The translations under genes and the position numbers were made by a program. A stretch of DNA of 64,000 nucleotides from Bacillota bacterium (GTDB taxonomy: Bacteria > Bacillota > Dethiobacteria > DTU022), in the NCBI GenBank assembly GCA_030611385.1, contig JAUWPV010000002.1:15433-79432 (forward strand), given 5' to 3'. This document shows, in pieces, positions 12,054-62,261 of this stretch; position 1 is the first letter of the stretch, and every line of letters begins with the position of its first letter. Below the pieces are notes generated by a model that had not been told where the DNA came from, did no database searches, and was given only the letters and a program-made list of their open reading frames with translations.

Positions 12054-12147
12054 GGGAGTAGTTAGCGGCCTGGTGGCGCTCCTGGACTTCAAATCCTGTG
12101 GCAGGGCATCCCCCTGCGGTGGGTTCGATTCCCATCTACTCCCGCCA
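12054..12147 (+). tRNA. selC: tRNA-Sec (selenocysteine tRNA, anticodon UCA)
   Basis: 94 nt. 8-bp acceptor stem GGGAGTAG/CTACTCCC, 5-bp T-stem with a TTCGATT loop, anticodon loop CU-UCA-AA, 6-bp long variable arm GCAGGG/CCCTGC, discriminator G and CCA end. Confidence 0.8.
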
Positions 12148-12196: not shown

Positions 12197-12245
12197 TTTG
12201 CTTAATCAGCGCCGATGCTTAATTCTACAACCGGACGTGACAAAA

Positions 12246-42398: not shown

Positions 42399-42890
42399 TT
42401 GAACACAGACGCTGAAGCTACAGCAATCAATCAGGAAATTGATTTACACCAGGTCGATTCTATCATTGAGCCATATATCGGCAGGAAAGAAATGATTATA
42501 CCAGTTTTGCAAAAATTACAGGAACATTTCGGTTATCTGCCCCGACAGACCATGGAACAGGTATCCTACCGGATGCATATTCCCTTGAGCCGCATCTATG
42601 GCGTGGCTACTTTCTATGCCCAGTTTAAGATGAGACCGCGGGGTCGCAATATCATCAGGGTTTGTAAAGGTACCGCCTGTCATATTCAGGGCAGTCCGAA
42701 GATTGCCGAACGGATTGAAGAGAACCTCGCTATCCAAAATGGGGAGACCACAACCGACCTGCGGTTTACCCTTGAAGAGGTTGCCTGTATCGGGGCTTGT
42801 GCCTTAGCTCCGGTTATTATGATTAACGACAATCCGCATGGCCGGCTGACCGCAGACAAGATTAAAGATATCCTGGCGAGCTACAAATAA
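42399..42890 (+). CDS. NuoE/FdsG-like [2Fe-2S] thioredoxin-fold subunit of an NAD-linked dehydrogenase
   Basis: TTG start 8 nt after GGGAGG. Four Cys (CKGTAC...C...C) in the NuoE pattern. Confidence 0.75.
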   Translation: MNTDAEATAINQEIDLHQVDSIIEPYIGRKEMIIPVLQKLQEHFGYLPRQTMEQVSYRMHIPLSRIYGVATFYAQFKMRPRGRNIIRVCKGTACHIQGSPKIAERIEENLAIQNGETTTDLRFTLEEVACIGACALAPVIMINDNPHGRLTADKIKDILASYK

Positions 42891-42916
42891 AGAATAGAGC
42901 TGGAGGAGGTGGCCTT

Positions 42917-43096
42917 GTGAACAAGTTTATTGATCAATGCTGCGACAAATGCACCCACACCAGAAGCACACCCTGTAAAGACTTTATCAGATGCTGCGTG
43001 GAAGGACCTGTTTGCCATGAAGATCTGGTTTGTTCTGCCAAAAGAAAGGCGATTATTGAAAAGGTTGCCCTGAATGAAAATTTTGTGATCTGTTAA
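42917..43096 (+). CDS. Small cysteine-rich protein (59 aa, 10 Cys) between the NuoE-like and NuoF-like genes
   Basis: GTG start after GGAGGAGGTGG. Translation VNKFIDQCCDKCTHTRSTPCKDFIRCCVEGPVCHEDLVCSAKRKAIIEKVALNENFVIC. Below the ORF-track cutoff. Confidence 0.35.
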   Translation: MNKFIDQCCDKCTHTRSTPCKDFIRCCVEGPVCHEDLVCSAKRKAIIEKVALNENFVIC

Positions 43097-43129
43097 TAGC
43101 TATGTTCAGGCAAAGGGGGGTACCGGATT

Positions 43130-44947
43130 TTGTATGAAAAACATCTAATGATTTGTGGAGCCACGGGTTGTATTTCATCAGGTTCGCGCTCGGTTGAGCA
43201 GGCCCTGGTTAAAGAACTCGAAAATCATGGCATCAGAGATAGATACCGTCTGGTCATGGGTGGTTGCCCCGGATTTTGTGAGGTAGGGCCTATTCTGGTG
43301 ATCTACCCGGATGAAGTTTTCTACTGCCACCTGACACCGAAAGACATGGTCGAACTGGTTGAAAAGCACCTGGTCGGCGGTGAGATTGTTGAACGGCTGC
43401 TCTACAAGGGTCCGGATGTTGCTGTGCCGGTTCGCTTCTACGATTCAATTCCTTTCTATGCCAAGCAGAAATTCAATGTTCTGCACAACAGCGGCATCAT
43501 TGACCCGGAAAGCATCGATGAGTATATAATGCGCGGTGGTTACCGCGCTTTTACACGCGCCCTGACTATTGATTCGCTGACAATTTGTGAAGAAGTTAAA
43601 GAGTCTGGTCTGCGTGGTCGCGGAGGCGCTGGATTTTCGACCGGTCAGAAGTGGGAATTCACCAATAAGGCTCCCGGACCGAAAAAGTATGTTGTCTGTA
43701 ACGCTGATGAAGGCGACCCAGGGGCATTTATGGATCGCAGCATTCTCGAAGGCGATCCTCATGCTATACTCGAAGGGATGCTGATTTGCGGCCGGGCTAT
43801 TGGTTCCAACGAAGGCTATATCTACTGCCGGGCTGAATACCCTCTGGCCATAAAAAGACTGAAAATCGCCATTAGCCAGGCCTTAGAATACGGCCTGTTG
43901 GGAGAAAACATACTCGGTTATGGCTTCAACTTCAAGATCAATATCAAGGAAGGGGCCGGCGCTTTTGTTTGCGGTGAAGAAACCGCTTTGCTTGCTTCGA
44001 TTGAAGGCAAGAGGGGTATACCCCGCCCGCGTCCGCCATTTCCGGCTCAGTCCGGTCTTTTTGGTAAACCGACTACGATCAACAATGTCGAAACCCTGGC
44101 CAATATTCCCCTGATCGTCAGGGAGGGCGGTGCGGCCGAGTTCGCGCAGATTGGCACAGCGGGCAGTAAGGGCACGAAAGTGTTTGCCCTGGCTGGAAAG
44201 ATTCGCAATACCGGGCTCTGCGAGGTGCCGATGGGCATTACTTTCAGGGAGATTATCTATGATGTCGGTGGAGGAATTAAAGGCGGACGGGAATTCAAGG
44301 CAGTTCAGGCTGGGGGCCCGTCGGGTGGATGTATTCCGACAGAACTGCTTGATTTGCCGATTGATTACGACTCACTGAATAAAGCCGGAGCGATCATGGG
44401 TTCAGGCGGCTTGGTGGTTATGGATGAAAGTACCTGCATGGTTGATCTGGCCCGTTACTTTTTAAGCTTCACACAAAAAGAATCATGCGGCAAGTGCACA
44501 CCCTGTCGTGAAGGAACCATGCGCATGCTCGAGATTCTGAACCGTATCACCGGGGGTTTTGGTAATCCGGAAGATCTTGATACTCTCGACAGTCTGGCGC
44601 ACAGTATCAAAGACAGTTCTTTGTGCGGTCTCGGACAGACCTGTCCAAACCCGGTCTTGAGCACGATCCGTTATTTCAGGCACGAATACGAAGAACATAT
44701 TGAAGAAAAGTACTGCCGTGCCGGTGTCTGTAAGGCGCTTTTCAGCTATAAAATTGATCAGGAGCGATGTACCGGCTGCAGGGCTTGTGTGAAAGCCTGT
44801 CCTGTTGATGCAATCACGGGCGAGAAAAAGGAACCTCATGAAATTGATCAGGGGCGCTGCACCCACTGTGGCAGCTGTATTGAAAAATGCCGACAGGATT
44901 GCATTCTGATCACTCGCGTAGGGAGGGAAGCCGATGTCAGCAATTAA
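43130..44947 (+). CDS. NuoF/FdsB/HndC-like NAD(H)-binding flavoprotein subunit (N-terminal Trx-like [2Fe-2S] domain plus FMN/NADH domain plus C-terminal 2x[4Fe-4S])
   Basis: 605 aa. GxGxxG FMN/NADH motifs, SLBB domain, C-terminal CxxCxxCxxxCP pair. Confidence 0.8.
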   Translation: MYEKHLMICGATGCISSGSRSVEQALVKELENHGIRDRYRLVMGGCPGFCEVGPILVIYPDEVFYCHLTPKDMVELVEKHLVGGEIVERLLYKGPDVAVPVRFYDSIPFYAKQKFNVLHNSGIIDPESIDEYIMRGGYRAFTRALTIDSLTICEEVKESGLRGRGGAGFSTGQKWEFTNKAPGPKKYVVCNADEGDPGAFMDRSILEGDPHAILEGMLICGRAIGSNEGYIYCRAEYPLAIKRLKIAISQALEYGLLGENILGYGFNFKINIKEGAGAFVCGEETALLASIEGKRGIPRPRPPFPAQSGLFGKPTTINNVETLANIPLIVREGGAAEFAQIGTAGSKGTKVFALAGKIRNTGLCEVPMGITFREIIYDVGGGIKGGREFKAVQAGGPSGGCIPTELLDLPIDYDSLNKAGAIMGSGGLVVMDESTCMVDLARYFLSFTQKESCGKCTPCREGTMRMLEILNRITGGFGNPEDLDTLDSLAHSIKDSSLCGLGQTCPNPVLSTIRYFRHEYEEHIEEKYCRAGVCKALFSYKIDQERCTGCRACVKACPVDAITGEKKEPHEIDQGRCTHCGSCIEKCRQDCILITRVGREADVSN

Positions 44948-47363
44948 TCTGACTATTAATGAACTTGCGGTTGAAGTAACTCCGGGAACGACGATTTTGC
45001 AGGCGGCCAGGCAGCTGGACATCGATATCCCAACCTTTTGTTACGATCCGGAGTTGGCTCCGAATGGCGCCTGCCGGATCTGTGTGGTTGAAGTTGAGAA
45101 TGCACGGACGCTGATTGCTTCGTGTGTTACCCCGGTCGCGCCGGGAATGGTTATACATACTGAGTCCGAGCGGGTCATAAATGCCCGGAAAGTGATATTA
45201 AGCCTGATGGTGGCAAACCATCCCCTGGTCTGTATCACTTGTGAAAAAACCGGGGAATGCAGGCTGCAGGACTACTGCTACCGTTATGGTGTGACTGACA
45301 GCAAATATTCAGGTGAAGTCAAGGAACTGTCTCTTGATGATACAAATACATTTTTTGTTCGTGATATGAATAAATGCATCCTTTGCGGTATTTGTGTCGG
45401 CAAATGCCAGGAAGTTGTCGGAGCCGGCGCTATAGACTTTACCAGGCGCGGTTTCATATCAAATGTCGGTCCTGCTTTCGAAGATTCTATTGAAGATTCG
45501 ACTTGCGTTTTCTGCGGGCTCTGTATCGACAACTGCCCGGTAGGAGCATTAACCCCAAAATACAGCCTTGGGCAGGGTCGCCCCTGGCAGGTGAAACAGG
45601 TCAGGGCTATCTGTCCGTACTGCGGTATTGGCTGTAATATAAACCTGCAGGTCAAAGATGATCAGGTGATCGGCGTCAAACCAGTCAAAGAGAGTCCGGT
45701 TAACCGGGGGCACCTTTGTGTAAGGGGTAAGTTCGGCTGGGATTATTTAAAAAGTAGTGATCGTCTTACGGCGCCACTTGTCAAATCGGATGGTGTATTT
45801 GTCGAGGTCAGCTGGGAAGAGGCCTTTGGTTTAATCGTTGATCAAATTGAAGAAGTCAAGCTTCGCTGCGGGGATGATGCCCTGTTCGGCCTTTGTTCGC
45901 CGAAGGCCAGCAACGAAGAGGCCTATCTTTTCCAGAAGTTGATCCGTTCACTTGGCTCAAATAATGTCGACAGTTTTACCCGGCACTGCCATGCTCCGGC
46001 GGTTAATGCCCTGATGGAAGCATTCGGCAGTGCGTCAATGACCAACAGCATTGAAGAACTGGCCGAAACCGGGGCTATCCTCGTTGTCGGAGCAAATCTG
46101 GCGGAGAGTCATCCGGTTTTAAACTACCGTGTGCGTGAAGCAGTCCGCCGCAGCGGGGCCAGGCTGATTGTTGCCCATTCTGAAACTATTGATCTGGTGG
46201 ATATAGCGCACCACTACCTGCCGCTCCGGATGGGCAGTGCTGTAGCCCTGGTTAATTCCCTGGCTAATTTCATTATCGAAGAAGGGCTGCATGATCGAGC
46301 CTTTATTGATAAGCGTACCGAAGGTTTTGAGATATTCAGGAAAGAGGTGTCTGGTTATACTATAAAGTATGCAGCAGAAGTAACCGGTCTGGCGGAAGAT
46401 GAACTGCGCGCTGCAGCCCGGGCTTATGCTGTTGCAGAAAGAGCTGCCATCGTCTCGGCAGTTGATACAGATAGGCACGCTGACAGCGCTAACCTGGTTT
46501 TGGCTCTGGCCAACCTGGCTCTGCTTACCGGCAATCTGGGTAGAGAGGCGGCCGGTCTTTACCTGCCTTACGGTGAAAATAACCTGCAGGGTATCGCCGA
46601 TATGGGTGCCCTGCCTGGTGTCCTGACCGGTTATCAATCGATCAAAGAAAAAAATGTTCGCGAAAAATTTGCCCGGGCCTGGGGCGTTAGCATAAACGTA
46701 AAGCCCGGCTTTACTGTGACAGATATATTTAAGCACGGTAAAAAGTCTGGTATTAAGGCGATGTACATTCTCGGCGAAAACCCGGTTACCTGTTCCGGAG
46801 AGCACCTGGAGACCGCAGCTTTCCTTACTGATCTCGATTTACTGGTTGTTCAGGATATCTATATGACCGAGACAGCTTCTCTTGCTGACATTGTTTTACC
46901 TGCAGCCGCCTTTGCTGAACAGGAGGGCACCTACACTAATACTGAACGGCGGGTACAGCTCAGCCGGAAGGCGGTCGAACCTCCCGGGGAAGCATTTCCC
47001 GGCTGGGCGATCCTTGCTGAACTGGCCGGGTGGTTGGGATTTGACTGGAATTATGACGGCCCGCAGGATATCTTTGCAGAGATCGCTTCACTGACCCATC
47101 AATATGCCGGTATTGATTATGAGCGTCTTAACGAACAGGGTCTGCAGTGGCCCTGCCCCAAAGGAGATCATCCGGGGACCAAATTTCTTCACAACGGCCG
47201 CTTCAGCCGCGGCCTCGGCCGCTTTTCTGTCGTCGATTATGAACCACAGGCTGCCGATAATCTGTCGATCTGTTGTTCCAAGGGACACTTTAACTGTCAG
47301 TGCCTGAGCGAAAACTTGAGCAGGCATTCGGTAATTAACACGCTCAGAAATAACAATGTTTAA
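44934..47363 (+). CDS. Formate dehydrogenase alpha subunit fused to a NuoG-like N-terminus (Cys-type, not selenocysteine); reading frame ends about 100 residues before the expected C-terminus
   Basis: 809 aa. N-terminal 2Fe-2S plus 4Fe-4S ferredoxin domains; MopB FDH domain with TRHCHAPAV aligning to E. coli FdhF ARVUHGPSV (Cys at the Sec position). The alignment runs to ...KGHFNCQC (FdhF VGHYSCRS) and then stops; the final Molydop_binding barrel is absent. Confidence 0.75.
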   Translation: MSAINLTINELAVEVTPGTTILQAARQLDIDIPTFCYDPELAPNGACRICVVEVENARTLIASCVTPVAPGMVIHTESERVINARKVILSLMVANHPLVCITCEKTGECRLQDYCYRYGVTDSKYSGEVKELSLDDTNTFFVRDMNKCILCGICVGKCQEVVGAGAIDFTRRGFISNVGPAFEDSIEDSTCVFCGLCIDNCPVGALTPKYSLGQGRPWQVKQVRAICPYCGIGCNINLQVKDDQVIGVKPVKESPVNRGHLCVRGKFGWDYLKSSDRLTAPLVKSDGVFVEVSWEEAFGLIVDQIEEVKLRCGDDALFGLCSPKASNEEAYLFQKLIRSLGSNNVDSFTRHCHAPAVNALMEAFGSASMTNSIEELAETGAILVVGANLAESHPVLNYRVREAVRRSGARLIVAHSETIDLVDIAHHYLPLRMGSAVALVNSLANFIIEEGLHDRAFIDKRTEGFEIFRKEVSGYTIKYAAEVTGLAEDELRAAARAYAVAERAAIVSAVDTDRHADSANLVLALANLALLTGNLGREAAGLYLPYGENNLQGIADMGALPGVLTGYQSIKEKNVREKFARAWGVSINVKPGFTVTDIFKHGKKSGIKAMYILGENPVTCSGEHLETAAFLTDLDLLVVQDIYMTETASLADIVLPAAAFAEQEGTYTNTERRVQLSRKAVEPPGEAFPGWAILAELAGWLGFDWNYDGPQDIFAEIASLTHQYAGIDYERLNEQGLQWPCPKGDHPGTKFLHNGRFSRGLGRFSVVDYEPQAADNLSICCSKGHFNCQCLSENLSRHSVINTLRNNNV

Positions 47364-47399
47364 GAAGTGAGAACTGAATATAACCGGAGGTGACCGGTA

Positions 47400-48752
47400 A
47401 TGGCAAAGTTTTTATTTCCCGAAGGCTTCCTCTGGGGAGCGGCCACCGCTTCCTACCAGATCGAAGGTTCACTGGATGCCGACAGCAAGGGAGAATCGAT
47501 TTGGGACCGGTTTTCACATACAAAAGGTAATATCTGGAATGAAGAAACCGGTGATATTGCCTGTGATCACTACCGCCGCTGTGCAGAAGATGTCAGGCTG
47601 ATGGCAGATATTGGCCTGAACGCTTATCGGTTTTCAATCTCCTGGTCGCGTATTTTCCCCCAGGGCAGTGGAAAGGCAAATAAAAAAGGCCTCGACTTTT
47701 ACCGCCGCCTGGTTGAACAGCTGAACAGTAATAAAATAAAATCGTCTGTAACCCTATACCACTGGGATCTTCCTCAGACACTGCAGGATAAAGGCGGCTG
47801 GAACAACCGCGACACAGCAAAATATTTCGCTGAGTATGCCGCCTACGTCTACGCCAATCTTGATTTGCCTGTCGATATGTGGATTACGCTTAACGAGCCC
47901 TGGGTTATTGCTATTTTGGGGCATGCATTTGGTATACATGCTCCCGGATTAAATGATTTCAATATTGCCCTGCAGGTATCCCACAACCTCCTGCTCGGGC
48001 ATGGACTGGCGGTCAAAGCATTTCGGGAAGCGGGTCGTAAAGATGAACCAATCGGTATAACCCTGAATCTCGCTCCGATCCAATCTTTAACCGAAAAACC
48101 GGCCGATCTTGAAGCTGCCCGTCGTTCAGACGGCTTTATGAACCGCTGGTTTTTAGATCCGATCTTTAAAGGCAGTTACCCGCAGGATATGGTTGAAATC
48201 TTTTCCCGTACCTTTAGCCTTCCTGCTACTGAAGAAGGCGATGCTGCCATTATCGCTGAGCCGATTGATTTTCTGGGCATCAATAACTATACAAGAATTC
48301 TCGTCGAAGCAAGCGGTTCGGAAGATGCTTTCATGGGCAACCCGATCAATCCGCCCGATGCCGAATATACCGAGATGGGTTGGGAAGTCTACCCGCAGGG
48401 TCTTTATGAATTACTGATCCGCGTACACCGCGACTATGGCCCCCTGCCGCTCTATATTACCGAAAACGGGGCCGCTTTTCCTGACGAATTAAAGAAAGAC
48501 GGAACCATTGATGATCCACGCAGGATTAACTACCTGCAGACTTACCTGCTGGAAACCTGGAAAGCCGTCGAAGATGGGGTGCCCCTGAAAGGATACTTCG
48601 TCTGGACCCTGATGGACAACTTTGAATGGGCTTTCGGTTTCAGCAAACGATTTGGCCTGATCTATGTCGACCACCCGACCCAGAAGCGTTACCTGAAAAA
48701 CAGTGCGCATTGGTACAAAAAAATGATCAGCAGAAACGGGCTGGAGGCTTAA
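47400..48752 (+). CDS. bglA: GH1 beta-glucosidase / 6-phospho-beta-glucosidase
   Basis: 450 aa. N-terminal FLWGAATASYQIEG, acid/base TLNEP and nucleophile ITENG motifs. RBS GGAGGTG 7 nt upstream. Confidence 0.85.
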   Translation: MAKFLFPEGFLWGAATASYQIEGSLDADSKGESIWDRFSHTKGNIWNEETGDIACDHYRRCAEDVRLMADIGLNAYRFSISWSRIFPQGSGKANKKGLDFYRRLVEQLNSNKIKSSVTLYHWDLPQTLQDKGGWNNRDTAKYFAEYAAYVYANLDLPVDMWITLNEPWVIAILGHAFGIHAPGLNDFNIALQVSHNLLLGHGLAVKAFREAGRKDEPIGITLNLAPIQSLTEKPADLEAARRSDGFMNRWFLDPIFKGSYPQDMVEIFSRTFSLPATEEGDAAIIAEPIDFLGINNYTRILVEASGSEDAFMGNPINPPDAEYTEMGWEVYPQGLYELLIRVHRDYGPLPLYITENGAAFPDELKKDGTIDDPRRINYLQTYLLETWKAVEDGVPLKGYFVWTLMDNFEWAFGFSKRFGLIYVDHPTQKRYLKNSAHWYKKMISRNGLEA

Positions 48753-48763
48753 AGAGTATTTCA

Positions 48764-49555
48764 ATGGAACAGAAAAGAGCGGTGCACAAAACGATCATCA
48801 GGATTCGACAGGGCGAGCGGGAAGAGAAGCAGGATCTGATCACAGTCGAAGCCCCCGTGACCATCTATCTTAACGGTAGAGAACTGGTCACTTTGCTCTG
48901 TACTCCGGAAAAGATCGATCGCCTTGCTTTAGGGTTTTTACGCTCTGAAGGTATAATTACTGCGATTGACGATGTGGCTTCCATTCGCGTTAGGGATGAA
49001 GAAGGATTAGTCGAGATCGACCTGAAATGCGAAACAGACTTGATCGAGAAACTCTATGGTAAACGGACGATAACTTCGGGTTGCGGTAAAGGAACCGTTT
49101 TTTTTAATGTGCTCGATTCACTACGCAGCAGCCCACTTGAAGGCGACCTGAAGATCAGCGCTGGCAAAATCTGGTTTCTGATGGAGTCGCTGGAGGAAAG
49201 AGCGGAGCTGTTCAAATCAACCGGTTGTGTACATAGTGCTGCCCTGGCCGATCAAGAACAGATTCTCTGTTTTTTTGAAGACATCGGTCGTCACAACGCT
49301 ATTGATAAAATTATCGGCGAGTGCCTGCTGGCCGGAATCCCAACTGATGATAAGATTATTGTGTCGAGTGGCCGTTTAAGTTCGGAGATTTTGCTGAAAG
49401 CTGCCAAGTTGAAAATACAGCTGCTCGTTTCCCGGGCTGCTCCGACCTCTCTTTGCATCGAACTGGCCGAGAGTTTAAATGTCACCCTGGCCGGTTTTGT
49501 CAGGGGAAAACGAACAAATATATACACTCATGGATGGAGGATTACAGCAGACTGA
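48764..49555 (+). CDS. fdhD: Formate dehydrogenase accessory sulfurtransferase FdhD
   Basis: Start at MEQKRAVHK, 12 nt after the bglA stop. Catalytic-Cys loop TSGCGKG and GRHNAIDK motif. Confidence 0.75.
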   Translation: MEQKRAVHKTIIRIRQGEREEKQDLITVEAPVTIYLNGRELVTLLCTPEKIDRLALGFLRSEGIITAIDDVASIRVRDEEGLVEIDLKCETDLIEKLYGKRTITSGCGKGTVFFNVLDSLRSSPLEGDLKISAGKIWFLMESLEERAELFKSTGCVHSAALADQEQILCFFEDIGRHNAIDKIIGECLLAGIPTDDKIIVSSGRLSSEILLKAAKLKIQLLVSRAAPTSLCIELAESLNVTLAGFVRGKRTNIYTHGWRITAD

Positions 49556-49589: not shown

Positions 49590-50468
49590 TCAGGGTTTAA
49601 TGAATTTACGTAAGGTTTCCTTATCTTTAACCAGTTTTTCGTCCAAGTGGATCTTTTTGGCGTAGACATTGACCTCGTCCAGATAGAAACCGGTTTGGTA
49701 TTCAACCTCTTCTTTAACTGATTGTTGAACCTCGCGCAGGAGAAGATCTATTCTCATATTCGGTATCCGTACCAGATCAACAGCTATGTCAATATTTATA
49801 AGAACCCTGCTTTTACCGTTCTGTAGTTCAACATCAACAGTCTTGTAAACGCCGGGAATATTGGAAATAATGAACTCTACCAGGTTGGTAATAACATGCT
49901 CGGCAATATAGAAAGAACCTAGTGTACTGAAGATAGGTCGGATAACTGAACGTTCAACAGGGGAACCGGCAGTCTGATAAGTTGGAAAGCTGAAAAAAGT
50001 ACGAAGTGGATCGATAATGTAGCCGGGAAATTCTTTTTTTATGGCGAAAGTGGGCAGCGGTATGACATGGCGGTTTTCTTTAGCCCTTAAAGTCAGGGCG
50101 GTTTTAATTGACTCGGGATCAGATACTTCTTCGATAGTGTAATAATAAGCAGGAAGATCAAGCCCAAGATTCTCGGCGATCATATCGGCCATGCGTCTGG
50201 ATGTGCTCAAAATCAAGAGGCGTCCCGGCATGATTTCAGTCAGCTTGGTCTTAACCCGTCCGGCATGTTCGGGATCCTTAAAAAGGGCTCTTTTTATTGC
50301 TCCAAAGCGGGTATTTTCCCTTTTTGCCGAACGCCCGGCCAGGATCATGGCACCTTTAATAAGGAGGCCATCATCGATCATATATTCAATATTATATTGC
50401 CTGGCTAATACCGGGGCCTGGTGGCTCTTACCTGTGCCGCTGTGGCCAATTAATGCATATACTTCCAT
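49590..50468 (-). CDS. Two-domain protein: N-terminal P-loop NTPase/kinase-like domain plus C-terminal Asp23/Gls24-family domain
   Basis: Walker A GHSGTGKS. The C-terminal roughly 110 aa resemble Asp23 (alkaline shock protein) family. Start taken at MEVYALIGH after GGAAG. Confidence 0.5.
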   Translation of the reverse strand: MEVYALIGHSGTGKSHQAPVLARQYNIEYMIDDGLLIKGAMILAGRSAKRENTRFGAIKRALFKDPEHAGRVKTKLTEIMPGRLLILSTSRRMADMIAENLGLDLPAYYYTIEEVSDPESIKTALTLRAKENRHVIPLPTFAIKKEFPGYIIDPLRTFFSFPTYQTAGSPVERSVIRPIFSTLGSFYIAEHVITNLVEFIISNIPGVYKTVDVELQNGKSRVLINIDIAVDLVRIPNMRIDLLLREVQQSVKEEVEYQTGFYLDEVNVYAKKIHLDEKLVKDKETLRKFIKP

Positions 50469-50634
50469 AGGTCTACTTCCGCGCTTCATTTATTCCGGTA
50501 TTTGCGTCCGGTAGTAAAACTGCTCTATTATTATAGCATACAGAAGAAGCTTATATGGAGAAACGCTCATTGATCATCTGATTGTCCGCGACAGAGCTTT
50601 TACCGGCCGATCACACTGTTAAGGAGGGTTTGTT

Positions 50635-51123
50635 TTGTCAGAGTTCTATCATGATCTGATCGATACGTCAAAAGGTGTTTTTACGATTCTTTTCAGCCGT
50701 GCAGGGATCTACGAAATTTTTTTCCCCGGTTCCGATCCGGATCCGCAATATACGCGCCGCCACTTGCCATGGCCGCAATTGACTGACGATCTGAACCGCT
50801 ATCTTCAGGGTGAAAATGTCGACTGGGACCAATATCCTCTTGATTGCAGCGGTTATCGGCCCTTTACGGCAGCTTTGCTCGGTATAGTGCGCCGCATACC
50901 TCATGGGCAGGTCTATACCTATCGACAAGCAGCTGAGCTCGCCGGTTCTCCGCTGGCCTGGCGGGCAGCAGGACAGGCTCTTAGTGCGAACCGACACCCG
51001 ATTATCGTTCCCTGCCACCGTATCGTTGGCAGTAATGGTAAACTGGGTGGGTTCAGCGGTTCCCCCGGATGGAAGAAGATGCTCCTCGAGACTGAGAAGT
51101 GTGCAGTAAGGAGTTGGCAGTAA
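50635..51123 (+). CDS. ogt: Methylated-DNA--protein-cysteine methyltransferase (Ogt/MGMT)
   Basis: IVPCHRIVG active-site motif and DNA-binding HTH region. Confidence 0.75.
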   Translation: MSEFYHDLIDTSKGVFTILFSRAGIYEIFFPGSDPDPQYTRRHLPWPQLTDDLNRYLQGENVDWDQYPLDCSGYRPFTAALLGIVRRIPHGQVYTYRQAAELAGSPLAWRAAGQALSANRHPIIVPCHRIVGSNGKLGGFSGSPGWKKMLLETEKCAVRSWQ

Positions 51124-51303
51124 AATAATTAAGCGGGTGAGACAGCTTAAAAATCCTCAGGTGGGCTTGACCGCAGAGGAAGTAATCGATAAACTAAGGC
51201 AGGATAAAAAGAGCCGGGAAAGCGAGATTTATTTGTTTGGTCTCGATTTATTGTAAGTAGTTGAATTAGATGATATTATTGCAGTCGTTGTAGAGAATGG
51301 AGA

Positions 51304-52551
51304 GTGGTAGAGATGAAGCCAACTGTAAAACCGGGCCGCCTTTTAATTCTGATCGCCCTGTGCCTGTTTATAATTGTTTCAGGTTATTGGGCTTTTCTAA
51401 ATGCGGCCGATCAGGAAACGGGGATTAAGCGGGGTTTGGATATTGCCGGGGGACTTTATGTGCTCCTCGAAACGGTTGAAACAGGAGATCAGGAACTGGA
51501 CGAAGATGCGATCGAACGGGCGATTACTGTTATTCGCATGCGTGTTGACGAACTTGGTGTTGCCGAACCGATTATAGCAGCTCAGGGTGATAACCGGATT
51601 CGCATTGAACTGCCGGATATTGATGATGTTGAGCAGGCCCGTACGATTATTGGGCGGACTGCCCTGCTTCAATTTGTTGGACCTGATGGTGTTGAAATTG
51701 TTACCGGTGCTCATCTGATTCGGGCCATAGCTGAAAGAAATCCGGAAGCCACTCCGTACCCTTATATCAGCCTTGAATTTGATCAGGAAGGAGCCCGTCT
51801 TTTTGCCGAAGCAACCGGTAAGTTTTTAAACCAGCCTATTGTTATTGTCCTTGACGATGAAGTGATTTCTTCGCCCGTTGTCAGGGCAGTTATTACCGAC
51901 GGAAAGGCAACAATCGAAGGAAATTTTGAATTCGAAGAGGCTGCCAATCTGGCGCTGCTACTGCGTAGTGGTTCTCTACCTGTTGAACTGCGTGAACTTG
52001 AGTCCCGTTTAATCGGGCCAACCCTTGGTCAGCGAACAGAAGAGATTGCTGTTTATGCTGCCGCTGTAGGTCTGTCCCTGGTTTTACTGTTTATGATTAT
52101 CTATTATCGGATTGCCGGAATAATTGCCGGAATAGCCCTGATATTCTACATGTCCTTAGTTCTGTGGGCTCTGGCCTATTTACCGGTAACCCTGACTTTA
52201 CCGGGCATGGGCGGCCTTATCTTATCCATTGGTATGGCCGTAGATGCCAATGTGATTATATTTGAAAGAATCAAAGATGAACTGCGCTCTGGCCGGACAC
52301 CGCGCAGCGCCATGGAAGACGGTTTTCGGCGTGCTTTCCGGGCGATTCTTGATGCCAACGTGACTACACTGATTGTGACTGTTGTACTATTCAGCCTGGC
52401 CAGTGGGCCAGTCAGAGGTTTTGCAGTAACCCTCTTTATCGGGATTACCTGCAGTATGTTTACGGCCATAGCTTTAACCCGCTTGCTGCTGCGTATGGCT
52501 TTTAAAGCCGGCATTATCAGAAGCGGGGCTTATGTGGGGGTGAAAGTATAA
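51304..52551 (+). CDS. secD: Protein translocase subunit SecD
   Basis: 415 aa; periplasmic domain plus 6 TM helices; adjacent secF. Confidence 0.85.
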   Translation: MVEMKPTVKPGRLLILIALCLFIIVSGYWAFLNAADQETGIKRGLDIAGGLYVLLETVETGDQELDEDAIERAITVIRMRVDELGVAEPIIAAQGDNRIRIELPDIDDVEQARTIIGRTALLQFVGPDGVEIVTGAHLIRAIAERNPEATPYPYISLEFDQEGARLFAEATGKFLNQPIVIVLDDEVISSPVVRAVITDGKATIEGNFEFEEAANLALLLRSGSLPVELRELESRLIGPTLGQRTEEIAVYAAAVGLSLVLLFMIIYYRIAGIIAGIALIFYMSLVLWALAYLPVTLTLPGMGGLILSIGMAVDANVIIFERIKDELRSGRTPRSAMEDGFRRAFRAILDANVTTLIVTVVLFSLASGPVRGFAVTLFIGITCSMFTAIALTRLLLRMAFKAGIIRSGAYVGVKV

Positions 52552-53474
52552 TGATAAATTTTATCGGTAACCGTCGAAAAGCCTACTTGCTGTCATTGAT
52601 TATGGTTGTCGCCAGCATTTTATCAATAGCCTTCATGGGATTAAACCTTGGGCTTGATTTTACCGGTGGCACAGTACTGAACCTGAACCTGGGGGAAGAT
52701 TTTTCTTTGGAAGAAATCGAAGAGGTGATTGCTCCTTTTGAGGAACTGAAGGGAGCGGTAGTACAGATAGTCCAGGGAAGAGATTTAACCGGAAAACTGA
52801 CTGAGGAAGGGTTGGTAATCAAAGCGCCTTATATTGAAGAAAGCCGGCGTAATGAGCTGATGGACGCCTTACGAACCCGGTGGCCGAATCTTGATTCTGC
52901 TGATTTAAGAATCGAAAGTGTTGGGGCTGTTGTCGGTGGTGAACTGACCCGCCAGGCTCTTATTTCGCTGGCCGTGGCGATAGTTTTAATGGTTGCCTAT
53001 ATTACCTTTCGATTTGAATTTAAATTTGCAGTGGCCACAATCGTTTCTCTGCTGCACAATATCATCATTGTGATCGGTATTTTTTCCATTCTTAGGATGG
53101 AAATAAATGTTCCTTTTGTAGCAGCGATCCTGACTGTTTTCGGTTACTCGGTCAATGACACGATCGTTATTTTCGATCGGATACGCGAAAATATTAGGCA
53201 CAAACGGAAGAGTGATTACGCTGAAGTGGTTAACCAGAGCATTAACCAGAATCTGGTGCGTTCAATCAACACTTCATTGACGACTCTTATTGTGTTGATC
53301 GCCCTGCTCGTTGGTTTTAACTATTTTATCGGCAGTATTGATCTGGTTGTCTTTGTGGTTGCCCTGATCCTGGGGGTTTTTATAGGCACCTACTCGTCAA
53401 TATTTGTTGCCAGTCCTGTATGGCTGAACTTACAAGAGCTGAAGTTTAGGCGAACCCGCCGTAAAGCGGCTTAA
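52551..53474 (+). CDS. secF: Protein translocase subunit SecF
   Basis: 307 aa; SecF TM core; start overlaps the secD stop. Confidence 0.85.
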   Translation: MINFIGNRRKAYLLSLIMVVASILSIAFMGLNLGLDFTGGTVLNLNLGEDFSLEEIEEVIAPFEELKGAVVQIVQGRDLTGKLTEEGLVIKAPYIEESRRNELMDALRTRWPNLDSADLRIESVGAVVGGELTRQALISLAVAIVLMVAYITFRFEFKFAVATIVSLLHNIIIVIGIFSILRMEINVPFVAAILTVFGYSVNDTIVIFDRIRENIRHKRKSDYAEVVNQSINQNLVRSINTSLTTLIVLIALLVGFNYFIGSIDLVVFVVALILGVFIGTYSSIFVASPVWLNLQELKFRRTRRKAA

Positions 53475-58617: not shown

Positions 58618-58855
58618 TGTTGTGTACATGCCTGCTACCGTAGGGTACAATAAGGTGGAATATTATAACTGCTCAGACTGAGCAGGCGGAAGGGCTCTAC
58701 GATCATTTTTGCCAAAGCCAGCACAGCTGCGGTATACTATTGGCTACAGGCCGCTTCCAGGTAAATATGCGCATTATTGTCGACAATGATGGCCCGGTTA
58801 CAATGATACTCGACAGCAAAAAGCAATTTTAAGAGAATTGGAGAGGAAAACGAAG

Positions 58856-61800
58856 ATGAACTACAAGGCACCCCGCGGAACACGCGACATATTACCGGAT
58901 GAATCAATGAAATGGCAACACCTTGAAGAGAGATTCAGGGATTTCTGCAATCTCTATGGTTTTGGGGAAATCAGAACCCCTATTTTTGAACAAACTGATC
59001 TTTTTATTCGCAGTGTCGGTGAAGAGAGCGACATTGTTTCGAAAGAGATGTATTCTTTCAAGGACCGCAGTGGCCGCGAACTAACATTACGCCCCGAGCT
59101 GACCGCCGCCGTAGCGCGGGCCTATCTTGAACATAACCTTAACGAGCAGCCGCAGCCGATCAAACTATATTACAGTGGACCGATGTTTCGTTATGACCGA
59201 CCCCAGGCCGGCCGTTACCGCCAGTTCCATCAATTTGGACTGGAGATCTTCGGGGCAGCCAATGCCGTTGCCGATGCTGAAATAATTGCTTTCTGCTATC
59301 ATTTCTTTAAATCATTGCAGATTGAAAATCTATCAATCGAACTGAACAGTGTCGGCTGCCCGGCCTGCCGCCCCCAATTTCGAGATATTCTGGTACCTTA
59401 CCTTGAAAACATTGAAAAGGGTCTCTGTTCCGACTGTATCAAACGCTATAAGCATAACCCGATGCGTGTTCTTGATTGCAAACAGGAAAGCTGCCAGATC
59501 CAGGTAGAAACAGCACCAAGAATGTCCGATCATCTGTGTCCCGACTGTGACCGTCATTTTATAGCTCTCAAAGAGCTGTTGACCAGACTACAGATTCCTT
59601 ATAATCTGAGCAGCCGGCTTGTACGCGGCCTCGATTACTATACCAGGACCGCTTTTGAAGTTGTTGCCGGTGATTTGGGCGCCCAGGCTTCATTATGCGG
59701 CGGCGGGCGCTACGATCACCTGGTAGAGCATTGCGGCGGGCCGCATACGCCTGGAGTGGGAGTTGCTTTTGGCGTTGAGAGAATCATACTGAGTATGGAC
59801 TGGAGCAAGCAGATGCCTGAGCCCCGGTCGTCGGTCTATCTAGCCACTGCCGGTGAGAATTTGGAAGGGGAATCTTTACTCCTGGCTTCCGAACTGCGGC
59901 AGCGTAATATCGCAGTCGATACCGAATTGATGGAACGCAGTCTCAAAGCGCAGATGAAGTATGCCGGAAAGCATAACTGCAAATATGTTGTGATCATCGG
60001 TGAAGATGAAATTGCCAGCGGCCGGGTAACCCTGCGTGATATGGAAAGCGGAGACCAACAGGAACTGACCCGTGAAGCTGTTTTCGAGCTGCTGATCAAA
60101 GACGAACCTGTATCAAAAGAAGAGCCTGCTTCGCCCACCGGGGCAGAAGTCATACTGCCTTCAAAGGGTAAACCGACGCAGAAAAGCCACTACTGTGGAT
60201 TGCTGAATTTGAGTGATGTTAACAATACTGTTAAGCTGGCCGGTTGGGTCGGCAGGCGCCGCGACCACGGCGGGTTGATCTTTATTGATTTAAGAGATCG
60301 CAGTGGTATGATGCAGCTGGTATTCGATCAGAAACTGGGTGTTGAACTTTTCAATCAGAGTGAGAGCCTGCGTAATGAATATGTAGTCGCTGTCGAGGGG
60401 AAGGTTGTCAAAAGATCCGCGGATAATATTAATCCATCTCTGCCAACTGGTGAAATCGAAGTGCGGGTTGCTAATATGGAAATATTAAACAGCTCGAAAA
60501 CACCGCCTTTCTATATCGAAGATAATCTTAATGTTGATGAAAACCTGCGCCTGCGTTACCGCTATCTTGATTTGAGGCGCCCGGAAATGTTAAATCGTCT
60601 TATGCTGCGTCACCGTGCGGTCAAGCTTGTTCGCGACTACATGGATCGCTTCGACTTTTTAGAAGTGGAGACGCCAATGCTGACCCGCAGCACACCGGAA
60701 GGCGCACGGGACTTCCTTGTGCCCAGTCGCCCTCATCCGGGCTTTTTTTACGCTCTGCCTCAATCACCGCAGCTGTTCAAGCAGCTGCTGATGGTCAGTG
60801 GCCTGGAGCGCTATTTTCAAATTGTCCGTTGTTTTCGGGATGAAGATTTACGGGCAGACCGACAGCCGGAATTTACCCAGGTTGATATCGAAACTTCCTT
60901 TTTCGGCAGCGAGAACCTTTTTGCCCTGATCGAAGGGTTGATGGAGCTGTTGTGGAAAGAGATTCATGGTGTTGAGCTTGAACTGCCTTTCCTGCGCATG
61001 CCTTATAAGGAAGCGATGGAACGGTTTGGCTCTGACAAGCCTGACCTGCGCTTTGCCATGGAACTGGTTGATATCGGTGAGCTGGCCGCAAAAAGCGCTT
61101 TCAGGGTTTTTACTACTGCCCTCGAAAACGGCGGAGTGGTCAAAGGTCTGCGTATACCCGGTGGTAGCCGCTTTAGCCGCAAGGAATTGGATGACCTGAC
61201 TTTGCTGGCCCGACAGCTCGGTGCCAAAGGACTGGCCTGGACTTATATTGAAGATAGCGGTTGGCGTTCGCCGATCGTTAAGTACTTCGATCCGGTTTTA
61301 CTTGATCAAATCAGTGCAAAAATGCAGGCTGAACCGGGTGATGTTCTGCTCTTTGTTGCCGACCGCCGGGAAACCACCTGCCAGGTGTTGGGTAGCCTGC
61401 GCCGCCATCTGGCCCCGGAAAATATTTCTGATGAACCAAATTTCCTCTGGGTGGTCGACTTCCCACTTTTTCACTTTAATGAAGCGGAACAGCGCTGTGA
61501 TTCAGATCACCACCCCTTTACTGCGCCCCGGGTTGAGGATATGCCTCTGCTGGAAAGCGATCCCCTTGCTGTACGTGCTCAGGCTTACGATCTGGTGCTG
61601 AACGGAGTGGAACTTGGCGGAGGCAGCACCAGAATTCACGACAGCGAAACTCAGGCCAAAATCTTTAAACTACTCGGGCTGTCGGAAGAAGAGAGTCGGG
61701 AAAAATTCGGTTTTCTGCTGGAAGCTCTTTCATTTGGAGCACCGCCGCATGGTGGAATTGCTCTTGGTCTCGACAGACTGGTCGCTCTATTAACCGGTGA

Positions 61801-61945
61801 TGAATCGATCCGACAGGTCATTCCCTTTCCCAAAACGGCTGCGGCCAACTGCCTGATGACCGGCGCCCCGGCTTTTGTAGAGACCAGCCAACTGGATGAA
61901 CTAAAAATTCAACTGCAACCGCAGGAAGAGGAAGAAGTAAAGTAA
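58856..61945 (+). CDS. hisS-aspS: Single in-frame ORF encoding histidyl-tRNA synthetase (residues ~1-415) joined by a ~28-aa Pro/Glu/Lys/Ser linker to aspartyl-tRNA synthetase (~586 aa): an apparent HisRS-AspRS fusion
   Basis: ATG at 58856, 9 nt after GGAGAGG. HisRS motifs up to ...RVTLRDMESGDQQELTREAVFELLIKD. There is no stop codon and no ATG/GTG/TTG start before the AspRS N-terminus (SHYCGLLNLSDV..., GWVGRRRDHGGLIFIDLRDRSG). Confidence 0.7.
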   Translation: MNYKAPRGTRDILPDESMKWQHLEERFRDFCNLYGFGEIRTPIFEQTDLFIRSVGEESDIVSKEMYSFKDRSGRELTLRPELTAAVARAYLEHNLNEQPQPIKLYYSGPMFRYDRPQAGRYRQFHQFGLEIFGAANAVADAEIIAFCYHFFKSLQIENLSIELNSVGCPACRPQFRDILVPYLENIEKGLCSDCIKRYKHNPMRVLDCKQESCQIQVETAPRMSDHLCPDCDRHFIALKELLTRLQIPYNLSSRLVRGLDYYTRTAFEVVAGDLGAQASLCGGGRYDHLVEHCGGPHTPGVGVAFGVERIILSMDWSKQMPEPRSSVYLATAGENLEGESLLLASELRQRNIAVDTELMERSLKAQMKYAGKHNCKYVVIIGEDEIASGRVTLRDMESGDQQELTREAVFELLIKDEPVSKEEPASPTGAEVILPSKGKPTQKSHYCGLLNLSDVNNTVKLAGWVGRRRDHGGLIFIDLRDRSGMMQLVFDQKLGVELFNQSESLRNEYVVAVEGKVVKRSADNINPSLPTGEIEVRVANMEILNSSKTPPFYIEDNLNVDENLRLRYRYLDLRRPEMLNRLMLRHRAVKLVRDYMDRFDFLEVETPMLTRSTPEGARDFLVPSRPHPGFFYALPQSPQLFKQLLMVSGLERYFQIVRCFRDEDLRADRQPEFTQVDIETSFFGSENLFALIEGLMELLWKEIHGVELELPFLRMPYKEAMERFGSDKPDLRFAMELVDIGELAAKSAFRVFTTALENGGVVKGLRIPGGSRFSRKELDDLTLLARQLGAKGLAWTYIEDSGWRSPIVKYFDPVLLDQISAKMQAEPGDVLLFVADRRETTCQVLGSLRRHLAPENISDEPNFLWVVDFPLFHFNEAEQRCDSDHHPFTAPRVEDMPLLESDPLAVRAQAYDLVLNGVELGGGSTRIHDSETQAKIFKLLGLSEEESREKFGFLLEALSFGAPPHGGIALGLDRLVALLTGDESIRQVIPFPKTAAANCLMTGAPAFVETSQLDELKIQLQPQEEEEVK

Positions 61946-62261
61946 TTCTTGCGCCAGAATCGGTTTTATGCTATCATTTTTATAGAGGCAGCTTGATAAT
62001 TACGAGCTTAGCCCTGCTGTGTTCGTGACAACCGATTAAGTTTTGAGCTAACACTTTTTATATGGGAACCCGTACTTCAGCTGCAGCGTAGCAGCCTTTG
62101 TAAAGAGGACCTATAAACCAGTTGAGAAGGTACCCACCTTTCGGGGGAACAGTTCAAAACAACGGCCCACGGCACGGCGGGGTTTTTTAATGCCTTTCAG
62201 CGTGTTATAAACTGAGTTGTTTAACCGTGATTGTCTTGTTTTATGCAGGGAGGTGAGAGCA
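61946..62261 (+). promoter_or_regulatory. 316-nt ORF-free structured leader upstream of mgtE ending in a GC-rich hairpin plus GGGGTTTTTT; possible Mg2+-responsive attenuator (M-box not confirmed)
   Basis: Position upstream of mgtE, GC-rich inverted repeats, and a terminal T-run (about 62170-62190). Confidence 0.3.

Follow-up and report, generated by a model that had tools for sequence, protein, structure and literature searches.

The window, that is, the whole 64-kb stretch of DNA analyzed, carries on its plus strand ORFs encoding, in this order, a NuoE-like subunit, a CCxxC peptide, a NuoF-like subunit, a shortened FdhA, a GH1 beta-glucosidase, and FdhD. Both the ORF positions and the operon order proposed in the first-pass annotation were recovered. 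The first gene (42399..42890) encodes a NuoE/HydC-like [2Fe-2S] subunit of the BfuC type (Pfam 2Fe-2S_thioredx, E 4e-53; NCBIfam NuoE NF005722, 162 bits for a cut-off of 141), and its position is unchanged across all relatives. The small Cys protein encoded next (42917..43096, 59 aa) belongs to a named family, the "CCxxC motif-containing NuoF prefix domain" NF040902 (69.6 bits, cut-off 45), and is 59–98% identical to its counterparts in relatives. The third gene (43130..44947) encodes a NuoF/HydB-like FMN subunit of the BfuB type with the Pfam domains Complex1_51K, NADH_4Fe-4S, and two Fer4; its dN/dS is 0.03–0.05. It overlaps by 14 nt the gene of an 809-aa NuoG/FdhA-like fusion (44934..47363) that we named FdhA-short. 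An intact GH1 beta-glucosidase gene follows (47400..48752, 450 aa; Pfam Glyco_hydro_1, E 4e-171), and then the gene of FdhD, a sulfurtransferase and cofactor chaperone of 263 aa (48764..49555; Pfam FdhD-NarQ, E 2e-84; TIGR00129, 218.6 bits for a cut-off of 140.9). The fdhD ORF as listed begins at 48626 and overlaps GH1; the start found in relatives corresponds to the ATG at 48764.

The NuoF-like subunit shows the features given for bifurcating BfuB (PMC9304861): an FMN/NADH domain, a C-terminal 2x[4Fe-4S] ferredoxin domain (the two Fer4, residues 540–592), and an N-terminal [2Fe-2S] domain (2Fe-2S_thioredx, residues 4–79), the last at 24.1 bits, just below the Pfam cut-off of 24.8. The NuoE/BfuC and NuoG-like BfuA subunits of such a module are encoded together with it, the gene order is kept in relatives, and it corresponds to that of "Type 1 Fdh-Bfu" (PMC9304861). 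Gene contexts were read from homologues of the window protein.

Downstream, a convergent gene (49590..50489, minus strand) encodes a protein with a P-loop N-terminus and a weak Asp23-like C-terminus, a sub-threshold Asp23 hit being its sole Pfam match. It is 70–82% identical and unchanged in position in relatives, and is probably a marker of the operon end and not an operon member. An Rfam scan near the operon revealed no riboswitch (e.g., Moco) and no other RNA element. Promoter and terminator scans gave background level only and did not delimit the transcript.

Domains, Active Site, and Tail of FdhA-short

FdhA-short contains the Pfam domains Fer2_4, NADH-G_4Fe-4S_3, Fer4, Molybdop_Fe4S4 (PF04879, residues 221–273, E 3e-18), and Molybdopterin, which represents the pterin domains II–III (PF00384, residues 277–698, E 1e-70). 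The [4Fe-4S] cysteines C227, C230, C234, and C262 are invariant in short and canonical sequences alike. As first noted from the sequence, the domain IV cap is missing: a search for Molydop_binding (PF01568) in frame gave no Pfam match in the 809 residues, and the match to TIGR01591 covers profile positions 2–551 of 672, with 624.3 bits for a cut-off of 666.25 (P0072, a canonical relative, reaches 912.6 bits). The NuoG model TIGR01973 is also matched below its cut-off (417 bits vs. 470). The early stop is likewise real, as canonical relatives are 880–910 aa long and run about 120 residues beyond it, and homology to them does not extend beyond roughly the first 12 residues of domain IV. Among solved structures, the nearest are alpha subunits of NAD-dependent FDHs (9wxb and 6tg9), aligned only to residue 771. 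An AlphaFold2 model built from a 34-sequence alignment was mediocre (mean pLDDT 69, pTM 0.59), and Foldseek recovered with it the general FDH-alpha fold only. We found no description in the literature of a natural FdhA without domain IV.

A check of other frames for remnants of the C-terminal domain had been suggested. With this domain of 52 canonical relatives as query, tblastn detected none in the six frames of the 64-kb window, and no domain-IV-like sequence was found within 8–10 kb of the locus of any short-clade relative. For the stretches searched, it is thus very improbable that a separate small protein provides domain IV in trans to form a normal two-chain FDH. The tail of FdhA-short does retain the first domain IV strand, a possible docking element, but nothing direct points to such a partner, and the catalytic Arg would be absent regardless. 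The gene ends with TAA followed by an in-frame TGA, which excludes read-through and fusion. Selenocysteine read-through is ruled out, as the stop is not TGA and nothing domain-IV-like lies 3' of it. A frameshift or assembly error is similarly ruled out by the agreement of more than 60 independent assemblies and by the TAA with its in-frame TGA.

The active site is altered. Cys352-His353 of FdhA-short (45987..45992) coincides with the Mo/W-liganding Cys/Sec and the His beside it: the "TRHCHAP" stretch aligns with "ARVCHSP" of Rhodobacter capsulatus FdsA, the Cys-His pair of which we take to be Cys386-His387. The pair is retained in about 90% of the short-clade clusters and replaced in about six, namely P0014 (Y), P0056 and P0058 (FY), P0059 (SH), P0060 (AY), and P0062 (GL). 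Both Cys-His-less members examined, P0014 and P0059, have kept the operon. Tyr546 (46569..46571) occupies the position of what is presumably the catalytic Arg (FdhH R333, RcFdsA R587), "LPYGENNLQG" aligning with "PLRGQNNVQG". Among 64 short-clade sequences this residue is Tyr in 55, Phe in six, and Pro in three, whereas at least 95% of 48 canonical sequences have Arg. Conversely, Cys620 (46791..46793) is shared by 95% of short-clade sequences and by 0% of the canonical ones, which have Ser there.

The C-terminal tail (residues 771–809, 47244..47363 with the TAA stop) aligns with the first domain IV strand, "YHYHTGTMTRRS", and carries a CxC (C788, C790) and an S-x2-M-x2-RSVI motif. Within the clade, C788 is conserved in 94% of members, C790 in 97%, S799 in 100%, and I801 in 92%. 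The pLDDT of the tail is below 50, and the model is uninformative on where the CxC is placed.

Of the columns that are invariant in canonical sequences, 43 of 45 in the Fe-S part but only 88 of 139 in domains II–III are retained by 90% or more of the clade; in domains II–III, 37% are thus no longer conserved. The canonical "TQH" stretch (residues 513–515) is variable. Former catalytic positions nevertheless carry fixed replacements (Tyr546, Glu548, Cys620, C788, and C790) and not variable ones, a pattern that resembles a new constraint and not decay. The stretches GSAxMTNS, ESHPV, GENP, VVQD..TETA, and GTYTNTERRVQ, which we take to be pterin-binding motifs, are retained.

The Short Clade and Its GH1 Gene

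The short form with its conserved tail is common to about 64 protein clusters, 56–97% identical and 776–817 aa long, with a query coverage of 95–100%; all 64 lack PF01568. They form one monophyletic clade in a neighbor-joining tree, a simple tree without support values. A GTDB scan revealed at least four short-clade loci among the matches listed. Public members of the clade are labeled Bacillota or Syntrophomonadaceae MAGs, and the operon is best explained as vertically inherited in an uncultured Bacillota lineage. In all short-clade loci reaching past fdhA-short, fdhD lies 3' of it, either straight after it, past a spacer with GH1 remnants, or past GH1 itself.

FdhA-short is under purifying selection. 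Its dN/dS is 0.08–0.13 in comparisons with distant relatives, dS being saturated for most pairs, and 0.18 in comparison with a 97%-identical GH1-bearing contig (21 nonsynonymous and 34 synonymous changes). The Mo module taken separately gives 0.09–0.17, and fdhD 0.08–0.10.

The full-length sisters at the orthologous locus, which has no GH1, are informative on the order of events. In P0065, P0070, and P0071, the catalytic Arg is already absent, and in P0066 and P0068, the active-site Cys is deleted and no fdhD adjoins. Taken together, these comparisons show that the catalytic Arg was lost before the cap, that the clade has fixed Cys620 and a new tail with cysteines, and that FdhA-short represents an ancient capless form under selection and not a fresh truncation.

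The GH1 enzyme scores 611.6 bits with TIGR03356 (cut-off 478.5), the catalytic Glu motifs NEP and TENG are present here and in six orthologues, and its dN/dS is 0.08. As claimed at the outset, it is intact, unrelated to its neighbors, and wedged before fdhD; the spacer separating it from fdhA-short measures 36 nt and contains a GGAGG ribosome-binding site. A GH1 gene lies between fdhA-short and fdhD in L003, L086–L092, and L094, and this order is present down to 61% identity of the FdhA-like protein; for 13 further GH1/FdhA-short pairs, the longest contig is of equal size. The operon GH1s are 68–84% identical among themselves and at most 62% identical to those outside the group. From the fdhA-short stop to the GH1 start there are 20–24 nt in L086, L088, and L092, and the two genes overlap in L090 (by 8 nt) and L094.

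Three GH1-less relatives (L004, L007, and L008) harbor GH1 remnants in the spacer between fdhA-short and fdhD, and GH1-less relatives keep the same short fdhA, intact. GH1 is therefore ancestral and repeatedly lost: this distribution shows that it already stood between fdhA-short and fdhD in the clade ancestor and that it was deleted several times, at least three, without effect on fdhA-short. In the basal member P0063, we detected neither a GH1 gene nor a remnant in the spacer. Among the relatives compared, none has bglA beside a full-length fdhA. On either side of GH1, we found no insertion scar, no repeat, and no mobile-element gene. The GC difference between bglA and its neighbors, a comparison proposed in the first-pass annotation, is not meaningful (0.47–0.50 vs. 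0.49–0.54), and there is thus no compositional sign of a foreign origin. A role of GH1 as a structural stand-in for the cap is unlikely, as lineages that deleted it keep fdhA-short. Most likely, GH1 is co-transcribed as a passenger and has a sugar-hydrolase role of its own.

The locus had been read as a recent GH1 insertion or replacement in this genome that truncated fdhA and left a pseudogene. Its local appearance invites this reading, with the cap absent and an unrelated gene 36 nt further on, but the comparative data refute it, and the probability we leave to it is negligible. The same length and tail recur in the roughly 64 clusters down to 56% identity, with dN/dS values of 0.08–0.18 that reflect purifying selection. 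GH1 is ancestral and not a newcomer, and the window holds no domain IV remnant.

A single event at the origin of the clade, in which GH1 was inserted while the fdhA 3' end encoding domain IV was replaced, is a different matter. It bears on origin only, is compatible with the interpretation preferred below, and is possible, although we would stop short of calling it probable. Domain IV disappears and GH1 appears on one and the same stem branch, sister loci having a full-length gene and no GH1. In the clade, GH1 begins close to the end of fdhA-short or overlaps it, and canonical homology breaks off just inside domain IV. The shortened FdhA would have been tolerated because FDH chemistry was already gone, and then maintained. 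However, such an event is indistinguishable from two independent events on one branch, GH1 bears no trace of insertion at its borders, and the GH1-less basal P0063 has no detected remnant.

Possible Roles of FdhA-short and Comparison with Known Systems

The interpretation that we favor, with some reserve, is that FdhA-short derives from FdhA, is kept by selection without its cap as a subunit of a NuoE/NuoF (Bfu-type) module, and has ceased to be a canonical FDH, with GH1 as a passenger. The operon would then be an intact five-cistron unit to which GH1 has been added. FdhA-short would act as a NuoG-like (BfuA) subunit whose Fe-S clusters are wired to the flavin module of NuoE and NuoF, and this module is predicted to handle NADH and probably ferredoxin. 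Judging from its residues and its family score, FdhA-short has probably ceased to be an ordinary formate dehydrogenase. The first-pass annotation had offered, besides a pseudogene, an unprecedented truncated catalytic subunit. The truncated subunit is real; with the catalytic Arg lost, its designation as the catalytic subunit of an FDH is doubtful, and since other capless families of about 770 aa exist in databases, the form is not unprecedented.

For the former pterin module, two fates come into question. By analogy with NuoG of complex I and with StnC, it may well be vestigial or structural, a view that for us hangs about in the balance. It might instead have been repurposed as an active Mo/W site with FdhD at its service, a fate that we consider possible but rather less so; of the two, we think the vestigial or structural module the more likely. 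A dead pterin site is countered by the constant 3' position of fdhD and the purifying selection on it, by the Cys352-His353 pair in about 90% of clusters, by the retained stretches that presumably bind the pterin, and by the fixed replacements. If the third site of a BfuABC complex were dead, there would also be no obvious third substrate.

In its strongest form, the alternative makes FdhA-short an active neofunctionalized Mo/W-bisPGD enzyme, matured by FdhD, whose uncapped and more open site would, via NuoEF, couple NADH and ferredoxin to a substrate that is not formate/CO2. Tyr546 and Glu548 would replace Arg and Gln, a cap over the site or its ligands would be provided by the CxC tail and Cys620, and GH1 might even supply an aglycone substrate. 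We regard this as somewhat unlikely. The fixed replacements, the three conserved clade-specific cysteines, and the selection on the Mo module and on the ever-present fdhD are in its favor, as is the co-inheritance of GH1 with starts overlapping the fdhA-short stop in two loci. Nevertheless, we know of no characterized Mo/W-bisPGD enzyme without domain IV. Several clusters have Tyr, Phe, Ala, or Gly instead of the Cys ligand, P0014 (Tyr) and P0059 (Ser) keep the operon despite its replacement, the TQH stretch has become variable, and fdhA-short survived the GH1 deletions. Moreover, the window contains a tRNA-Sec gene, and FdhD could serve another FDH, if the genome encodes one. Unlikelier still is the specific scheme in which FdhA-short works capless as a Mo/W-pterin enzyme, the CxC tail and Cys620 closing or ligating a site to which FdhD delivers the sulfurated cofactor, with NuoEF coupling NADH and ferredoxin to a non-formate reaction whose substrate may be bulkier. 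If the site were still active, it would imply that domain IV is dispensable for the function of a bisPGD enzyme, the first such case known.

Under the favored interpretation, a NuoG-like subunit derived from FdhA, the annotation of these genes has to be reconsidered. Some short-clade proteins bear the JGI label "formate dehydrogenase (NADP+) alpha subunit", which is probably wrong given the absence of the catalytic Arg and of the cap. The locus should not count as an FDH in reconstructions from Syntrophomonadaceae-like MAGs, for instance of formate-based interspecies electron transfer. At one orthologous position, canonical enzymes, full-length sisters, and the short locus represent successive grades: the Arg is lost, and then either the Cys is deleted or the cap is lost. 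FdhA-short may thus be an intermediate between a catalytic FDH and a NuoG-like electron-transfer subunit. To our knowledge, such a transition, assumed for complex I, has rarely been caught part-way. GH1, for its part, illustrates an unrelated gene long resident in a redox operon and lost repeatedly, so that conserved adjacency is no evidence here for a shared function.

Compared with known GH1 beta-glucosidases (TIGR03356, BGL), the enzyme of the window is full length and typical, and differs only by its co-inherited location in a redox operon. The closest relatives of FdhA-short in sequence and fold are the alpha subunits of NAD-dependent Mo/W FDHs. Like FdsA of R. capsulatus (6TG9/6TGA), MeFDH1 (7VW6), and "Type 1 Fdh-Bfu" (PMC9304861), it has a NuoG-like N-terminus (2Fe-2S and 4Fe-4S) fused to Molybdop_Fe4S4 and Molybdopterin. 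The window operon shares with the NAD-dependent FDHs and Type 1 Fdh-Bfu the NuoE- and NuoF-like partners, fdhD, and Cys-His at the ligand position. Unlike these alpha subunits, FdhA-short has no domain IV, has Tyr in place of Arg, scores below the TIGR01591 cut-off, and possesses a new CxC tail.

Five metagenomic NuoG/FdhA-like proteins of about 770 aa (P0246, P0249, P0257, P0270, and P0332) similarly end at the border of domains III and IV, although, read as protein sequences alone, they may be split genes or partial gene calls. They match TIGR01591 only to positions 537–549 of 672, below the cut-off, and have degenerate active sites. They are about 40% identical to FdhA-short, do not have its CxC...RSVI tail, and in most of them Cys-His is wholly lost.

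NuoG/Nqo3 of complex I and StnC of Sporomusa ovata StnABC (8OH5) are also detectable homologues. In StnC and NuoG, FDH-derived modules were kept in a NuoEF-associated Fe-S subunit after formate chemistry was lost, and in NsoC and NfnA, which are related to StnC, the C-terminal domains are only partially present (PMC10482914). StnC additionally contains a separate catalytic domain of the GltD type, and NuoG is docked to the remainder of complex I, whereas FdhA-short has no other catalytic domain. Unlike both, it has retained Cys-His, the stretches presumed to bind the pterin, and an adjoining fdhD.

Architecture of the operon and absence of domain IV

Six genes transcribed in the same direction (+) occupy positions 42399–49555 of the window. 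They encode a NuoE-like subunit (42399–42890, from the ORF call), a 59-aa Cys-rich protein of the "CCxxC NuoF prefix" family (42917–43096; NCBIfam NF040902), a NuoF-like subunit (43130–44947), an 809-aa NuoG/FdhA fusion that we named FdhA-short (44934–47363), a 450-aa GH1 protein (47400–48752), and FdhD (48764–49555), the last two passing the curated NCBIfam family cut-offs. As the successive intergenic distances are 26, 33, −14, 36, and 11 nt, this set looks like one transcription unit. The fdhD ORF as listed mechanically begins 138 nt earlier (48626–48763, +), inside the end of the GH1 gene, an overlap that is an artefact of ORF listing; homology places the start at the ATG at 48764, with a GGAGG 15 nt 5' of it.

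According to Pfam, all the expected FdhA domains are present in FdhA-short except the domain IV cap (Molydop_binding, PF01568). The protein aligns only with positions 2–551 of the 672 of the Fdh-alpha profile TIGR01591 (NCBIfam) and scores 624 bits, under the cut-off of 666; P0072, one of the canonical relatives, that is, full-length with PF01568, covers the entire profile with 913 bits. With C-terminal domains taken from 52 canonical relatives as queries, tblastn detected no domain IV remnant in any frame of the window, and the TAA stop codon of FdhA-short is followed by an in-frame TGA. Pfam, TIGR01591, tblastn, and the ORF positions thus agree with the first-pass annotation in describing a short FdhA with a GH1 gene wedged before fdhD.

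Downstream, the gene of a conserved 299-aa protein (P299; 49590–50489, −) is convergent to fdhD, as in all relatives. P299 has a P-loop (GHSGTGKS) in its N-terminal part, weakly resembles Asp23 at the C-terminus, and belongs to no curated family. In most relatives (window positions 50500–53474 compared with loci L001, L086, L088, L090, and L092), the genes after P299 are those of EPSP synthase, a histidine-biosynthesis block, and chorismate synthase. SecD/SecF (51304–53474) come directly after P299 in the window, and a block of about 10 kb is therefore absent or moved in this lineage; locus L093 shows an intermediate arrangement. Further along, a single 1035-aa ORF (58838–61945, +) contains a complete HisRS (residues 14–420) and a complete AspRS (465–1000) joined by a linker of about 40 residues with no intervening stop codon. 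This ORF represents either a hisS-aspS fusion or an unusual stop-less arrangement, and is directly followed by a 6S RNA gene (62008–62187, +; RF00013, 99.6 bits).

An old short form and its GH1 neighbour

By searching 5.8 billion proteins, we identified about 64 protein clusters resembling FdhA-short at 56–97% identity. All are 776–817 aa long with 95–100% query coverage and lack PF01568; the next-best matches, at ≤57% identity, are 878–910 aa long and carry it. The short proteins share the tail motif CxC-x-S-x2-M-x2-RSVI-x2-LK, which aligns to the first strand of canonical domain IV, YHYHTGTMTRRS, and then ends. They form one clade in a neighbour-joining tree built without support values. All members are known from metagenomes, and the databases label them "molybdopterin-dependent oxidoreductase" (NCBI) or "formate dehydrogenase (NADP+) alpha subunit" (JGI). 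Among the 80 GTDB loci listed, the FdhA genes outside the clade that are uncut by contig ends all run in frame into domain IV, and no domain-IV-like sequence was found within 8–10 kb of any short-clade locus.

Comparison of FdhA-short with five relatives (67–77% identity) gave dN/dS values of 0.08–0.13 with saturated dS, and comparison with the 97%-identical GH1-bearing contig L003 gave 0.18 (21 non-synonymous and 34 synonymous changes). The ratios were 0.09–0.17 for the Mo module alone, 0.04–0.07 for the N-terminal Fe-S part, 0.03–0.05 for NuoF, and 0.08–0.10 for FdhD, dS being saturated in most of the pairs compared. The truncated gene had been proposed to be a pseudogene; the numerous clusters of the same form, the conserved tail, and ratios of 0.08–0.18 contradict this proposal and indicate that it is an old form under selection.

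The gene order ProRS, 5-FTHF cyclo-ligase, TetR (−), Metallophos, NuoE, CCxxC, NuoF, FdhA-short, FdhD, P299 (−) is kept across the clade. GH1 separates fdhA-short from fdhD in the window and L003, in L090/L091 (P0003, 75% FdhA identity), L086/L087 (P0014, 70%), L088/L089 (P0047, 64%), L092 (P0059, 61%), and L094; in L090 and L094 its start overlaps the fdhA-short stop. For 13 further closest GH1 homologues, the longest contig has the same size as that of an FdhA-short cluster. The operon GH1s are 68–84% identical to that of the window and the following matches drop to ≤62%, as would be expected if GH1 had been acquired once and then inherited vertically. Where GH1 is kept, its dN/dS of 0.08 indicates purifying selection, and both catalytic Glu motifs are retained. 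A GH13 alpha-amylase family gene is also present in the window (13704–15428, +; Pfam E-value 6e-140); this gene and GH1 point to some carbohydrate metabolism in the organism.

Conversely, GH1 is absent from L001, L004, L006, L007, L008, and L093, and three of these loci contain GH1 debris in the fdhA-short/fdhD spacer: residues 14–36 at 65% identity in L004 (3212–3304; E-value 1e-6), residues 1–11 joined to 288–304, reading MSKHLFPEDFLGINNYTRYLVQAG, in L008 (4303–4625; E-value 1e-6), and a frameshifted N-terminus plus a C-terminal "ARNGLED*" in L007 (8440–8801). These remnants look like independent internal deletions. In the neighbour-joining tree, GH1-positive members are spread over most subclades with GH1-negative ones nested among them. 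This distribution and the spacer debris indicate that GH1 was present early in the clade and was deleted repeatedly, fdhA-short staying intact. The insertion suggested by the first-pass annotation, taken as a recent event, is not compatible with these data: GH1 occurs in relatives down to 61% FdhA identity and has left remnants in GH1-less spacers. Because GH1 was lost repeatedly, it is better viewed as a passenger than as a partner of FdhA-short. As domain IV loss and GH1 gain are both placed on the stem of the short clade and the GH1 start adjoins the new stop codon, one ancient insertion-with-replacement possibly brought GH1 and removed domain IV. However, two separate events would account equally well for the data, and no repeats or mobile-element genes were found flanking GH1.

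Active-site residues in the short clade and its full-length sisters

The short clade keeps 43 of the 45 canonical-invariant columns of the N-terminal Fe-S region. In domains II–III, 88 of the 139 such columns (≥95% in canonical enzymes) are conserved in 90% or more of the short sequences and 18 are fully replaced. The catalytic arginine of Mo/W formate dehydrogenases (R333 of FdhH, R587 of RcFdsA) corresponds to Tyr546 in FdhA-short; this position is Y in 55, F in six, and P in three of 64 short sequences, and among 48 canonical proteins at least 95% have Arg. Cys352-His353, at the metal-ligand position, is retained in about 90% of the short clusters; about six have Y, FY, SH, AY, or GL there instead. 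At least two of these, P0014 and P0059, retain the complete operon, fdhD included.

These residues can be read in two ways. That the pterin module has been repurposed and is active seems possible to us, although distinctly less probable than even. Prevalence of Cys-His, retention of stretches that are presumably pterin-binding motifs, substitutions that are fixed rather than random (Tyr546 and Glu548 among them), and three conserved clade-specific cysteines (C620, 95%; C788, 94%; C790, 97%) are in favor of this reading, as are the constant adjacency of fdhD, itself under selection, and a NuoEF complex otherwise lacking an obvious third substrate. The argument from fdhD is weakened by a tRNA-Sec gene (12054–12143, +; Rfam RF01852, 70 bits), located between a cyclase-family gene (10222–11886) and a MatE transporter gene (12198–13661). 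The organism therefore uses selenocysteine, and a Sec-containing formate dehydrogenase elsewhere in the genome may be a client of FdhD.

We rank higher, at about even probability, a vestigial or structural pterin module. Scattered losses of the Cys ligand and the now variable "TQH" stretch of canonical enzymes point in this direction, as does a stepwise series of decay through the full-length sisters. These nearest full-length relatives occupy the orthologous locus, upstream synteny being shared (as seen for P0068), and are already non-canonical. P0065, P0070, and P0071 lack the Arg; in P0066 and P0068, a four-residue deletion takes out the ligand Cys, a different path of active-site loss within the same gene family. 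The P0068 locus (L095, 8001–10637) keeps domain IV and has no adjacent fdhD. FDH chemistry was thus compromised before the loss of the cap. Similarly, P0246, P0249, P0257, P0270, and P0332, NuoG/FdhA-like proteins of about 770 aa from the representative library belonging to several unrelated families, about 40% identical to FdhA-short, end at the domain III/IV border with degenerate active sites, as read from protein sequences that may derive from split genes or partial gene calls. We know of no characterised bisPGD enzyme without domain IV, which also favors a vestigial module.

Relationship to known NuoG-like subunits

The AlphaFold2 model of FdhA-short was weak, and our literature search found no paper on a natural FdhA without domain IV. 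Judging from its sequence, FdhA-short would be an FDH-derived NuoG-like subunit. The NuoF-like subunit of the window has, according to Pfam, the additional Fe-S domains characteristic of BfuB in the HydABC-like bifurcating family (PMC9304861), and the gene order is that of the "Type 1 Fdh-Bfu" enzyme (PMC9304861). FdhA-short is therefore probably the BfuA (NuoG-like) subunit of the NuoEF module. For a vestigial or structural pterin module, the models would be NuoG of complex I and StnC, the subunit of the Sporomusa ovata StnABC transhydrogenase in which the FdhF-like domain has no catalytic activity (PMC10482914).
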